A DNA stretch of 21,745 bases from assembly GCA_964615185.1 (NCBI GenBank), contig CAZTOS010000037.1:1-21745 (forward strand). The letters are read 5' to 3'. The position numbers and the translations under genes were made by a program. Numbering within the stretch: position 1 is the stretch's first letter; every line of letters begins with the position of its first letter. The notes under the pieces were generated by a model. The model was given only the letters and a program-made list of their open reading frames with translations, ran no database searches and had not been told where the DNA came from. Positions 1 through 21,745 of this stretch are shown in pieces. Source of the DNA: an uncultured Thermococci archaeon (GTDB lineage Archaea; Methanobacteriota_B; Thermococci; Thermococcales; Thermococcaceae).

Positions 1-48
1 GTAAATAGGAACTTACGAAACATTTGTTGGTTTTTGTTTTCCGTAATT

Positions 49-56
49 TTTATATA
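49..56 (+). promoter_or_regulatory. Putative TATA box for the structured ncRNA
   Basis: TTTATATA at 49-56 in an AT-rich stretch (17/60 GC in 1-60), about 25 nt upstream of where the GC-rich structured region begins (~80). Confidence 0.55.
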
Positions 57-79
57 GCCTTGTGGGGTAGTTTTTAGTG

Positions 80-273
80 ATGTAGCAGTCTCCGGTATGT
101 GGGGTTTTGTAAGCCCGAATGGAGACTTAACGGAAGATGTGGGGAGTTACCGTTCCCCCCGAAAGCCACCCAATGAAACCACGAGGGTGGAAGGTTATCC
201 GCTACCGAAAGTTCCACTTGCTTCAAAGGTAGCGGATAACCAGAACGGGCGACATCCCTACTGCCCCCCTTTT
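80..273 (+). ncRNA. Structured ncRNA resembling a TnpB omegaRNA / IS200-605-607 right-end RNA (possibly HgcC-like), with no tnpB CDS attached
   Basis: 54% GC over 81-270 (hand count). Stems: AGTCTCC 87-93/GGAGACT 121-127; GGGTTT 102-107/AAGCCC 111-116; GGGGAG 141-146/TTCCCC 153-158; CCACCC 166-171/GGGTGG 185-190; perfect 14-bp GGTTATCCGCTACC 193-206/GGTAGCGGATAACC 228-241; possible pseudoknot CCGTTC 150-155/GAACGG 243-248. The frame from 134 reads KMWGVTVPPESHPMK, which resembles archaeal TnpB C-termini (from memory), with an in-frame TAA at 128-130. Ends are approximate. Confidence 0.65.
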
Positions 274-289: not shown

Positions 290-322
290 TGCTCTTCTTC
301 AATTCCCTAAGAGGAGATGCCA

Positions 323-3300
323 ATGACTGTCTTAATTATTGCAGAGAAGCCAAATGTTGCAAAGAAAATTGCATATGCCCTTGCTGAAGGAAAGCCCATA
401 CGAAAAACTTTGTATGGTGTTCCCTACTATGAATTAACCCGCGATGGAAAAAAGATAATCGTGGCTCCAGCAGTTGGTCATCTCTATACACTGGCTCCGA
501 AAACCAAAACCTATGGTTACCCTATTTTTGATATTGAATGGGTCCCAGTTTATGTTGCTGAAAAAGGAAAGAGCTATGCCAAAGACTATATCAAAGCTTT
601 GAGAGAGCTTGCAAAGAGAGCTGATGAATTTATAGTTGCTTGTGACTATGATACTGAAGGTGAAGTAATTGGATATACAGCATTAAAATACGCCTGCGGC
701 GTTGACCCGAAGAAAGCAAAGCGTATGAAGTTCTCAGCTTTAACGAAGAGGGACATCCTTAAGGCATGGTACAACCTTGAGCCAACGATAAACTTTGGAA
801 TGGCCGATGCTGGAATAGCGAGGCATGTTCTTGATTGGTATTGGGGTGTCAACCTTTCGAGAGCTCTAACACATGCTATAAAGCGTGCAAGCGGCAAGTG
901 GATGATTTTAAGCACGGGTAGAGTTCAAGGGCCTACGCTCAAGTTCTTAGTTGAACGAGAAAAGGAAATTGCAAACTTCAAGCCAACTCCATACTGGGTC
1001 ATAAAGATGATTTTGGAGAAAAACGGGAAGCAGTATATAGCCACCTACGAAAAAGAGCGCATCTTAGATGAGGAGGAGGCAAAGCGCATTGTTCAAGAGG
1101 CTAAGAAAGGGCCAGCTTTTGTCGAGAAAGTTGAAGTCAAGCAGCAGAAGAGAAATTCCCCACATCCTTTTGACTTGGGAACACTCCAGAGAGAAGCGTA
1201 TTCTGCTTTTGGTTATTCTCCAAAGAAGACTTTGGATATTGCGCAGAGGTTGTATGAGAAAGGTTATTGTCTTCACCCAGATTCCCTAATTTTGACGCCT
1301 AACGGTATAAAACGAATTGAAGAACTCCCAGAAGAAGGCGAAGTTTTGGCCCTTGATTTTGGACTGAGGCTTTCGAAATGCCACTACAAGTTACTTGAAA
1401 GAGAAGCTGATGAACTCATGTACAAAGTAAAGCTCTCAGATAACACTGAGCTTTTAATCACTGCTGATCATCCAGTTTTGGTTTATCGTGAGGATAAATT
1501 AATTTTTGTCCCTGCCGAAAAGCTAAAAGAGAATGACCAAGTAGTAATGCTGATTAACAACTCCAAATTCCATGAAGAAAAAACACTGACCCTGCTTGAT
1601 ATTCTTCTTGAGAAAGCAAATTCCATGAAAGACTACATACTTTTCAAGCCAGAATTTGGAGAAGAAATTAGAAAAAGACTCATGGATGCCAATAAAAAAA
1701 CTGAGATTCTTGTTCTGTTTAATATAAAGGAACCAACATACTATAAATACTTGCGCGGCAAAATGCCGGTTCCCATAGTTAGATACCTGCTGGGAGAGGG
1801 AGTTATTACACTGAAAGAGCTGAGGGAGAACTATCTTGGTTTTACTTACAGCACTTCAGTTAAACCGGTTAGATTTGAGCCTAATGAGGATTTCTGGTAT
1901 CTGTTTGGCTTTGTGATTGGCGATGGACATCTTGCAAAGAAAGGTGCAATAACAATTCCTGCCAAAGATAGAGAAATGGAGACAATCAAAGCTATTGAGC
2001 ACTCAGTCAAAGCTCTTGGTCTTAGCATCAGATACAACAAAAAACATAAGGTAATAACGATAAGAAGCAAATCATTAACAAGGATATTTGAGCTTTTAGG
2101 CTGTCCATACGGGAATAAAACTGAGGTATTTGATATCCCAGATGAGATTACCTCCAAGAGAGAATGGATTTTGGCGTTCTTGGCTGGGTATTATGATGCC
2201 GATTCGCACATTGGGATAAAGCCTACGGGAGGGAAAAAGTCGTTTTCGCCTCAGATTGTTTTGACATCAAAGAACAAGAAGGCAATATATAAAGTTAAGA
2301 TGCTTTGGCAGCTGTTAGGCGTTGGAACGTATATCTGGACTAAAAAGGATAGAAATGGCATGTTCCAAGCATATGAGCTTAAGGTTTACTCACGTGATGC
2401 ACTACGCTTTTATGAGCTGATAAAAGGCTATCTCAGGGTTAAACGGGAAGATTTGGAGAGAGTAAGACAGCTTGCAATACGGGAGAGGAAACCTTTTTCA
2501 CGCCACTACAGCTTAATAAAAGTTGAGAAGTGGAAAGGAAAAATAAAGTCCAATGCTGGAGTGTGGAAAAGGTTTGATTTAGGCAACCAAACAGTACACA
2601 AGAGAGCAATAAGCTTAGACAAGCTCAAAAAGCTTCTGCCCTATTTGCAAGACAGCGACTTGAGAAGAGTTGCATCTGGTGACGTTTACATCTTAAAAAT
2701 CAAAGAGATTGAGAAATTCCATTATAAAGGAAAAGTTTATGATTTAGTTGTTGAGAACTACCACAACTTCATAGCCAATGGAGTAGTTGTGCACAACTGT
2801 TCATATCCACGTACAAGCTCTCAGAAACTCCCTAAGAATCTAAACTACAAATACATAATTCAAAGCCTCGCAAAAATCCCTGAATACAAGCCCTTTGCCC
2901 ATGAGCTTTTGGGCAAACCTCAGCTAAAACCAGTTGAAGGACCAAAAGATGACCCAGCCCATCCAGCAATTTACCCTACTGGTGAATTGCCTAAACCTGG
3001 AGAGCTAACTCAAGAGGAAAAGAACATCTACGATTTAATAGTTAGAAGATTTTTGGCAGCATTTGCAGACCCAGCAGTTAGGGAGATTATGAAAGTCATA
3101 ATAAACTCAAACAATCACCGGTTCATTTTAAGCGGAGCGAGGACATTAAAGGAAGGATGGCTCAAGATTTACGGCAAATATGTCAGCTTTGATGAAGTTA
3201 TCCTGCCTAAGTTCAGAGAAGGAAAGCCTGTCAGAGTTATCCAAATCAAGCGTGAGAAAAAGAAAACAAAGCCTCCAGCCCGTTATAGTCCGGCAAGCGT

Positions 3301-4039
3301 CATCAAAAAGATGGAGGATTTAGGAATAGGAACAAAGGCAACAAGGGCGCAGATTTTGGAGACGCTCTATCAGAGGGGGTACATTGAGGGGAAGAAAAAA
3401 ATTAGGGTAACTCCCCTCGGCATAAAGGTAGTCGAGGCTTTGGAAAAGAACGTGCCGGAGATTGTGAGTGTTGAACTTACAAGAGAGTTCGAAGAAAAAA
3501 TGGATGAAATTATGAAGCGGAAACTGAGCAAAGATAAGGTCATTGAAGAAGCAAAGGAACAGTTAATAAAGATTCTCAAGGAGTTTAAAGCCAAGGAGCT
3601 GGACATAGGCAGGGAACTTATGGAAAAGTTATTGGAAAGCGAAAAAAGCAAAAATAAGAAGTCAAAGAAAAAGACTGTTAAAGACTTGACATCAGAAGAG
3701 GAAGAAGCTATAAAAAAAGCTGTTGACAGAGATGAGAGAAAACAAAAAAATGAGAGAATAATTGTGGGAAAATGTCCTAAATGTGGTGGAGATTTGGTTA
3801 TAAGATACAACAGAAAAACTGGAAAGAGGTTTGTTGGCTGCTCAAACTGGCCCAACTGTGATGTTACCTACCCGCTTTTACAGAGAGGGGAAATAATTCC
3901 AACGGGAAAAGTTTGTCCAGAGTGCGGCAATGCCCCAATAGTGAAAATCAGGGAGAAAAACAGGGAATATGAAGTCTGTTTGAACATGAACTGCAGAAAA
4001 TGGAAATACAATAATAAGACAAATAAAAGGAGACCCTAA
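323..4039 (+). CDS. topA: DNA topoisomerase I (type IA), intein-containing precursor
   Basis: TOPRIM motifs IIAEKP and [17 protein letters not shown]; after splicing the sequence reads LYEKGY-CSYPRT (catalytic Tyr); [18 protein letters not shown]-terminal Zn ribbons [12 protein letters not shown] and CPEC..CLNMNC. ATG 323 is preferred over 317 on RBS spacing. Confidence 0.97.
1268..2797 (+). mobile_element. Intein (510 aa) with LAGLIDADG homing endonuclease domain, in topA
   Basis: Starts CLHPDS (TGT at 1268); block [10 protein letters not shown]; block [12 protein letters not shown]; block [11 protein letters not shown]; blocks [23 protein letters not shown] ending at 2797; +1 residue Cys (TGT 2798). 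Confidence 0.96.
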
Positions 4040-21648: not shown

Positions 21649-21745
21649 TGGAGATTCTTATTTAGAACTAATCTTAAGCTTATTTGTCCCAACAACCCAT
21701 CCAGCATTTCAATTCTCTTAGAGTCTTATTGGAACAGAGAAAAGG
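21649..21745 (-). CRISPR. Trailer (leader-distal) end of a CRISPR array, truncated by the window edge: one intact 30-bp repeat, one 37-bp spacer, one degenerate terminal repeat
   Basis: 21706-21735 on the minus strand is GTTCCAATAAGACTCTAAGAGAATTGAAAT, a typical Thermococcales repeat with the ATTGAAAN 3' end. Spacer at 21669-21705. Degenerate repeat starting at 21668 on the minus strand (GTTCTAAATAAGAATCTCC). 21736-21745 is probably part of the next spacer. Confidence 0.85.

Follow-up and report, generated by a model that had tools for sequence, protein, structure and literature searches.

A gene-free mini-IS607 element with a putative TnpB-type guide RNA scaffold interrupts the conserved non-coding RNA sRk28 in a Thermococci archaeon

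The window analysed here is a stretch of 21,745 nucleotides from an uncultured Thermococci archaeon. Window position 1 is the start of contig C37, and the first 7 bases of the element described below, together with its left flank, are therefore unassembled. The left part of the window carries a compact, structured element, the severed 3' hairpin of a host non-coding RNA and a topoisomerase gene (Table 1). A 96-aa open reading frame at 97-387 was rejected as a gene, as it runs over the element boundary into unrelated flank. At the opposite end of the contig lies a CRISPR repeat (CRISPR-DR6, window 21706-21735).

Table 1. Features at the left end of the window, with their positions, strand and the evidence for each
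Feature	Position	Strand	Evidence
Non-autonomous mini-IS607 (sRk48/sRk52 family)	1..247	+	Five further full copies with common ends; same ends around tnpA+tnpB in relatives; empty sites in relatives
Left-end region, likely the side of putative TnpA binding	1..46	+	Aligns with left ends of tnpA+tnpB and tnpB-only elements; left-end logo, 51 copies
Archaeal TATA box inherited from small-ORF+tnpB derivative	47..57	+	TATA-like motif at left end +53 to +57 in 25/34 minis
P0 stem-loop, DNA of the TnpB zinc-finger segment (CP-CG...LSPNG) with remodelled outer stem	87..127	+	96.5% of cells paired; outer-stem covariation in 25 minis
Junction of ~70-nt internal deletion relative to tnpB-bearing copies	128..133	+	Spacer lengths, minis versus tnpB copies
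Remnant frame of TnpB C-terminal tail, not a gene	134..232	+	tblastn of cognate TnpB, 74% identity over 27 aa; in-frame TAA at 128-130
P1 hairpin, whose loop (150-155) would form the 5' side of the predicted pseudoknot	141..160	+	99.2% paired; no two-sided change
P2 stem-loop, proposed K-loop	166..190	+	3/6 pairs covary; L7Ae gel shift of homologue sRk52 (PMC3124441, section 8)
P3 long stem with variable loop	193..241	+	9/13 pairs covary, 61 distinct copies; perfect 14 bp in window copy
Right end and 3' side of the predicted pseudoknot	243..248	+	Right-end logo 1.8-2.0 bits at -8 to -1; empty sites carry one G beyond the left flank
Putative guide and T run, severed 3' hairpin of host ncRNA sRk28	249..273	+	Empty alleles L047, L050, L051, L052; sRk28 alignment in supplement 4 of PMC3124441; intact in 77/96 relatives
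Neighbouring host gene, topoisomerase I with ~500-aa LAGLIDADG intein	317..4039	+	Pfam Topoisom_bac, Toprim, Intein_splicing, LAGLIDADG_3; context only

A preliminary description of this DNA had read it as an orphan, self-promoted TnpB-type omegaRNA, and every coordinate it gave was reproduced by script. The reverse complement between 193-206 and 228-241 is exact, giving the perfect 14-bp stem it had listed; such a stem arises in 0/2000 shuffles and in 34 of 9975 genome tiles. The complementarity of 150-155 to 243-248 also holds. However, the full 141-158 hairpin described along with it and the pseudoknot are mutually exclusive, because 153-155 cannot pair twice; a 4-bp stem, 141-144/157-160, is compatible with the pseudoknot. 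As described, about 21 nt (249-269) precede a T run at 270-273, and the plus-strand frame 134-232, translated as KMWGVTVPPESHPMKPRGWKVIRYRKFHLLQR and a stop, reads as a TnpB tail behind the in-frame TAA at 128-130; TTTATATA stands at 49-56. The 54%-GC island is real for 87-269 (54.6%), but over the whole quoted stretch 49-273 GC is 50.7%. Folding of the plus strand gives z = -5.05, with 0/200 shuffles equally stable, and that of the minus strand z = -2.83.

By BLAST and nhmmer, the same genome holds one degenerate 3' piece and 5 other full copies of the element (contigs C4, C13, C46, C8 and C113), of which two or more lie within genes. All 5 open with a G run and then CTGTTY, at a point 7 bases before the one that corresponds to window position 1. 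The right end CAGAACGG is common to all six copies, and unrelated sequence lies beyond it; the earlier expectation that every copy would stop there and that conservation would end at 248 was borne out. A sequence search of 61 genomes matched 28, all of the window's family, though a few of these matches cover the flank only. Right ends were counted over a sample of listed places rather than as a census, and 81 distinct ones were obtained. The left end could be located for 51 of them, which fall into three size classes: gene-free minis of 216-262 bp (n=34), tnpB-only elements of ~1,440 bp (1404-1490 bp, n=8) and tnpA+tnpB elements of ~1,850 bp (1846-1858 bp, n=9) with the same two ends; for the remaining 30 no left end was present within the stretch examined. 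Pfam analysis of one full element (L084) identifies TnpA as HTH plus Resolvase, the IS607 type, and matches TnpB to Cas12f1-like and OrfB profiles. The ancestry in a tnpB 3' end and the IS607 affiliation, both suggested from the letters, are thus supported by sequence similarity and by the proteins of the full elements.

The boundaries are sharp. Over 72 exact right ends (9/81 were dropped as inexact or partial), the high information of the last eight positions gives way to no more than 0.29 bits at +1 to +24. On the left side, 44 of 51 copies are preceded by GGG. By base count, one G of the terminal G pair at the right end is supplied by the host. It is near certain that window 1-248 represents a ~255-bp, gene-free, non-autonomous derivative of IS607; the non-autonomous element, a fallback reading of the preliminary description, was right, given the ends common with tnpA+tnpB elements, the dispersed copies and the empty sites. 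In the tnpB-only class (L040, L061, L065, L069, L071, L072), a ~55-aa open reading frame of two sequence types replaces tnpA, with a weak ribbon-helix-helix match (E 0.007) below the cutoff. An Arc-type repressor of IS605 elements has reportedly been described in one study (10.64898/2026.09.24.754181).

Relatives preserve the sites in the empty state. Empty sites are precise for the C4 copy in 5/5 same-genus loci (a ferredoxin gene), for the C113 copy in 4/4 same-genus loci and for the C8 copy, whose orthologous flank is present in 1/5 loci. A further copy, unassembled, falls in the gap that separates the end of C42 from the start of C25, where 5/5 relatives are empty; the interrupted gene we take to be cbiM. 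Through the element in this cbiM-like gene, C42 and C25 (L119, L116) can be ordered. On C4, the mini (G000:C4:27263-27517, L110) interrupts the ferredoxin gene within the first Cys motif, and the gene is intact in 5/5 same-genus relatives. The C13 copy adjoins a 735-bp deletion: the mini (G000:C13:3025-3277, L111) stands in place of 735 bp beginning inside a gene, presumably for a CidA/LrgA-type membrane protein by its look, which suggests an element-mediated deletion.

None of the precise empty sites (C4, C8, C113, cbiM) reveals a target duplication. In all 4 countable sites the empty allele consists of the left flank, one base (G in most relatives) and the right flank, which implies a four-G target run with a single shared G. 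The empty allele carries one G more than a matched GG core predicts (4/4), so that the GG core dinucleotide proposed earlier was not upheld. We infer that the one-G overlap fits either one shared G or a GC x GG crossover. It is consistent with the ISXfa1 scaffold, which includes a fixed right-flanking base (PMC10711439), and with engineered GC donors, which yield products that are GC at the left and GG at the right (10.1101/2023.11.20.567912). Taken together, these comparisons establish a mobile element with IS607 ends that inserts into runs of G and that, in the window, interrupts sRk28.

Positions 247-269 match four genomes at 100%, and the leftward continuation there is a conserved RNA, not the element. 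This RNA is sRk28 of Phok et al. (PMC3124441, supplement 4). It is intact in 77 of the 96 other family genomes, including 7/7 of the same genus, and is not intact in the present one, the only one of 97 family genomes with the element-sRk28 junction. In 3 of 4 metagenome runs, of which one is possibly the source, contigs span the junction, which makes an assembly artefact unlikely. A T run occurs 15-34 nt past the end in 6/31 minis and 6/28 tnpB copies; as it rarely follows other copies, the terminator here belongs to the host RNA, as its 3' end, and is not the element's own, as had been supposed. The natural target of the putative guide 249-269 would be the empty sRk28 allele, in which this sequence comes directly after a G run. 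Elsewhere in the genome the guide finds no match when up to 2 mismatches in 16 nt are allowed, and no GGG-preceded one with up to 3 mismatches in 16 nt; the viral contigs contain neither an exact target nor a match to the P1 motif. Among 74 copies, one pair has a flank in common, being the same site in two genomes. The insertion may represent a natural disruption of sRk28, a conserved RNA. Directly upstream of the expected sRk28 start lies a second multi-copy element (G000:C42:1-245, L122). BLAST matches it at ~30 places in the genome; several of the matches are 190-230 bp long, and one adjoins a Y1 tnpA element on C16. It is possibly a PATE-like mini of an IS605 family, and six related loci gave no Rfam match.

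The scaffold is well preserved as a structure. Over the 61 distinct copies, 96.4% of cells are paired vs 86.4% in shuffles. The covariation analysis advocated earlier gave a divided answer: P2 (3/6 pairs) and P3 (9/13) show two-sided change, whereas P1 and the pseudoknot together show it in 0/10. Pseudoknot cells are paired at 99.4%, with 3 one-sided wobble changes and zero two-sided ones, so that a DNA-level constraint is possible in P1 and the pseudoknot. The covariation of P2 and P3 may itself be inherited from full-length copies, with which the minis interleave. For P0, the outer stem has two-sided change in 5/9 pairs (25 minis, RNAalifold structure). In the predicted fold of the window copy, by a method that cannot form pseudoknots, the flank pairs with the 5' strand of P1, with a similar result in 3/5 other copies; such pairing could misfold the RNA of the window copy.

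The promoter that had been placed upstream of the scaffold is conserved in minis, and homologues are transcribed (PMC3124441). Transcription is predicted to start near 77. The TATA box of the minis aligns with that of the small-ORF+tnpB class (6/8), which indicates that the promoter was inherited and not newly gained; tnpA-bearing elements have a TATA at +30 in 7/9. In P. abyssi, sRk48 and sRk52 are detected on Northern blots, and the start lies 22 nt after the BRE/TATA box, as mapped for sRk52 (PMC3124441). According to the same source, processing shortens the two RNAs from 177/180 nt to ~130 nt and leaves variable 3' ends; both bind L7Ae, and their likeness to IS607 OrfB 3' ends was already remarked. 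A TnpB omegaRNA would be expected to take in about 16 nt of flank. By our count on the published alignment (PMC3124441), the 130-nt sRk52, without P0, would have to stop some 6-23 nt beyond the right end, in favour of a guide drawn from the flank. The 177/180-nt sRk52 clones, by the same count, end just 1-4 nt past it, which speaks against such a guide.

Minis are distinguished from tnpB-bearing copies by their 5' module. The spacer from the P0 loop motif to P1 measures 7-26 nt in 32 minis vs 89-92 nt in 29 tnpB copies, the minis being without ~70 nt of coding DNA. An outer P0 stem of the mini type is found, by a rough pattern, in 32/35 minis vs 2/30 tnpB copies, and stem pairing is equal in the two groups (837/865 cells in minis, 782/811 in tnpB copies). 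The P0 stem has nevertheless been rebuilt, with compensatory changes, for which a function of the DNA end alone is not obviously a sufficient reason. In a tree of the last 120 nt, which has few columns and rough support, minis and tnpB copies interleave, with at least 5 changes forced by well-supported branches; the minis have one 5' module in common despite these interleaving 3' parts. The window copy is a mosaic, 97% identical to the C13 copy in its 5' part and 99% to the C4 copy in its 3' part. Repeated recombination is the simplest reading of the interleaving and the mosaic, and a mis-joined assembly is a possible source of the latter.

At E 1e-70, 49 of 97 family genomes encode the cognate TnpB, compared with 0/36 genomes outside the family. 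The 28 tnpB loci sampled include 22 intact ORFs, 20 of which match all three RuvC motifs (D-E-D) by pattern; there is thus no sign of a dead TnpB clade. TldR proteins are nuclease-dead TnpB repressors, and the suggestion of a TldR-like partner is not supported, as the cognate TnpBs keep these motifs. The PDB chains include no close relative (best E 4e-15). Within the present assembly no cognate tnpB was found. The start of C62 consists of a left end and the start of tnpA, 95.5% identical over 157 nt to the full element L080, and right-end fragments stand at three contig ends, the one checked being 96% identical to L080; they look like collapsed repeats of full-type elements. The genome's remaining TnpBs (10 matches to Pfam PF07282) are unlikely partners, because their 3' ends differ and their identity to the cognate protein is at most 31%. 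An IS607 element at C11 is of a different family, with 53% TnpA identity.

Minis and cognate nuclease tend to coincide. The mini pattern is present in 29/97 genomes and 4/6 genera, and cognate tnpB accompanies it in 20/29 mini-bearing vs 29/68 other genomes (p=0.026, among kin that are not independent). Four genomes of 1-2 contigs (G007, G013, G024 and G027) carry minis without cognate tnpB, with the query used, which argues against strict dependence on TnpB. Two tnpB genes, L044 and L085, lie without a nearby left end in differing contexts, with shortened P3 stems and read-through C-termini. Their products (75% and 68% identity to cognate TnpB) are candidates for immobilised TnpB.

By analogy with characterised systems, we regard it as probable that TnpA moves the mini in trans and that TnpB loads its RNA and cuts the empty allele, repair then restoring the element. 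The serine recombinase TnpA of a full-length copy would excise and insert the mini. Its left-end promoter would produce an RNA of ~185 nt, trimmed to ~130 nt and ending in the host flank, and the TnpB of a full-length or tnpB-only copy would bind it. The complex would cut those chromosome copies with the empty allele (the G run, then 249-264) but not the filled allele, whose right end carries C at -3; with a filled chromosome copy as template, repair would restore or spread the element. The components of this scheme have precedents: IS607 TnpB cuts empty donor sites with TGGG or GGG TAMs (10.1101/2023.11.20.567912; PMC10711439), stand-alone omegaRNAs act in trans (PMC10691335), and Thermococcales are polyploid (PMC12713403). 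The mini is likely a selfish hitch-hiker rather than a host regulator. A bolder history, which we offer tentatively and hold to be rather doubtful as a whole, would make the minis an old lineage of guide-only parasites that took the left-end promoter, evolved a compact scaffold with a rebuilt P0 and go on swapping 3' halves with resident full elements for compatibility. With TnpB supplied in trans, they would spread between chromosome copies by a gene drive powerful enough to maintain an insertion even in a conserved host RNA, and the recombinase would natively cross a mismatched GC x GG core.

The scheme with TnpB guiding has to be weighed against the view that the mini is mobilised by TnpA and its RNA is a by-product, stabilised by L7Ae, with stems inherited or refreshed by recombination and no TnpB guiding at all. 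The persistence of minis in the four near-closed genomes without cognate tnpB fits this view, as do the interleaving of scaffolds with tnpB copies, the mosaic window copy and a pseudoknot without covariation support. It does not predict that an outer P0 stem specific to minis would be kept with compensatory change, that the promoter would sit at a fixed distance in 25/34 minis, or that pairing would not have decayed relative to tnpB copies, and we consider it unlikely.

Two further readings assign the RNA to the host's service. The minis could be decoys or regulators, whose RNA titrates TnpB (or TnpA or L7Ae) and damps full elements to the benefit of the host; a competitor role was speculated for PATE RNAs (PMC4615843), and the minis are multi-copy, self-promoted and, in P. 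abyssi, Northern-detectable (PMC3124441). Disruption of host genes (the ferredoxin gene, the conserved RNA) by lineage-specific insertions is instead what selfish spread predicts, and a site common to one pair only among 74 copies points the same way, so that a regulatory role seems highly improbable. The least probable of all is the proposal of the preliminary description, a domesticated guide that loads TnpB or a nuclease-dead TldR-like protein against a fixed host or viral sequence. Its own promoter, an intact scaffold and a T run after 21 nt give the window copy that appearance. Against it, the junction is unique to the present genome (1/97), the guide equals the adjacent host flank, the genome has no other GGG-flanked target (at up to 3 mismatches in 16 nt) and the viral contigs no exact one, RuvC motifs are complete in 20/22 intact cognate ORFs, and the T run is not conserved.

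The preferred reading, in which TnpA and TnpB act on the mini in trans, offers a testable function for an RNA family that has stood without explanation since 2011, and brings archaeal IS607-type systems into the range of stand-alone omegaRNA elements. The minis amount to a series of natural truncations of a hyperthermophilic TnpB guide, for which a G-run TAM is predicted. The host group is genetically tractable and polyploid, which makes homing measurable, and the one-G overlap bears on the choice of crossover by IS607 recombinases. The concept of guide-only elements served in trans is already published, which limits the surprise.

Rfam contains no family that matches the element at the gathering threshold; the sole match at E<=10, Sso133, is at chance level (17.9 bits vs a threshold of 44, E 0.56). 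HgcC (RF00062) is an archaeal RNA transcribed from transposase loci (PMC4247193), and the sRk48/52 P1 loop has been likened to a tetraloop motif also in HgcC (PMC4615843). The identification with HgcC-type RNAs put forward earlier was rejected, as its covariance model matches neither the element, whether at the gathering threshold or with E relaxed to 10, nor 8 related loci. Within the mainly open-access literature searched, sRk48 and sRk52 are named only in PMC3124441 and PMC4615843. Their description as omegaRNAs or as whole mini-IS607 elements, or such a target rule, was not found there; a prior description of these minis as elements is possible. Separate publications already cover the RNA family, the IS607 guide mechanism and guide-only elements; the whole mini-transposons, the G-run target, the inherited promoter, the scaffold shortened by ~70 nt and the single shared G appear to be new, in that we did not find them in print. 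In supplement 4 of PMC3124441, the sRkB/sRkC family shares this loop motif, and its members finish in a similar ACGG, beyond which the sequence varies; one of them is the 3' end of an OrfB gene. This is probably a second stand-alone omegaRNA family.

The closest known relatives are sRk48 and sRk52 of P. abyssi themselves. Window 133-167 agrees with the sRk52 row of the published alignment at all but 1 of 35 bases (PMC3124441), and the position of the BRE/TATA box, stems P0-P3, the 3' motif and the deleted segment relative to OrfB copies are common to both, from supplement 6 read by eye. The parts of that paper available to us (Phok 2011) present them as transposase-related RNAs and define no ends, target site, mobility or guide role. 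A TldR system would likewise use an omegaRNA-like guide, whereas the cognate proteins here keep their RuvC motifs, the elements are mobile and the guides are not conserved. Stand-alone omegaRNAs and PATEs (PMC10691335; 10.1101/2023.03.14.532601; PMC4615843) are likewise gene-free fused ends with an omegaRNA that needs a nuclease in trans. The PATEs described there derive from IS200/IS605 (Y1) elements, whereas the window mini is of the IS607 type with a lineage-specific, remodelled 5' module. With CboIStron (10.1101/2023.11.20.567912) and ISXfa1 (PMC10711439), the window element has in common a serine-recombinase TnpA, a G-run target, a scaffold ending in CGG with a fixed right-flanking base inside it, a flank-derived guide and a predicted pseudoknot. 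Unlike them, it has no intron and no protein genes, shares one G in place of a matched GG core, and is archaeal and hyperthermophilic.
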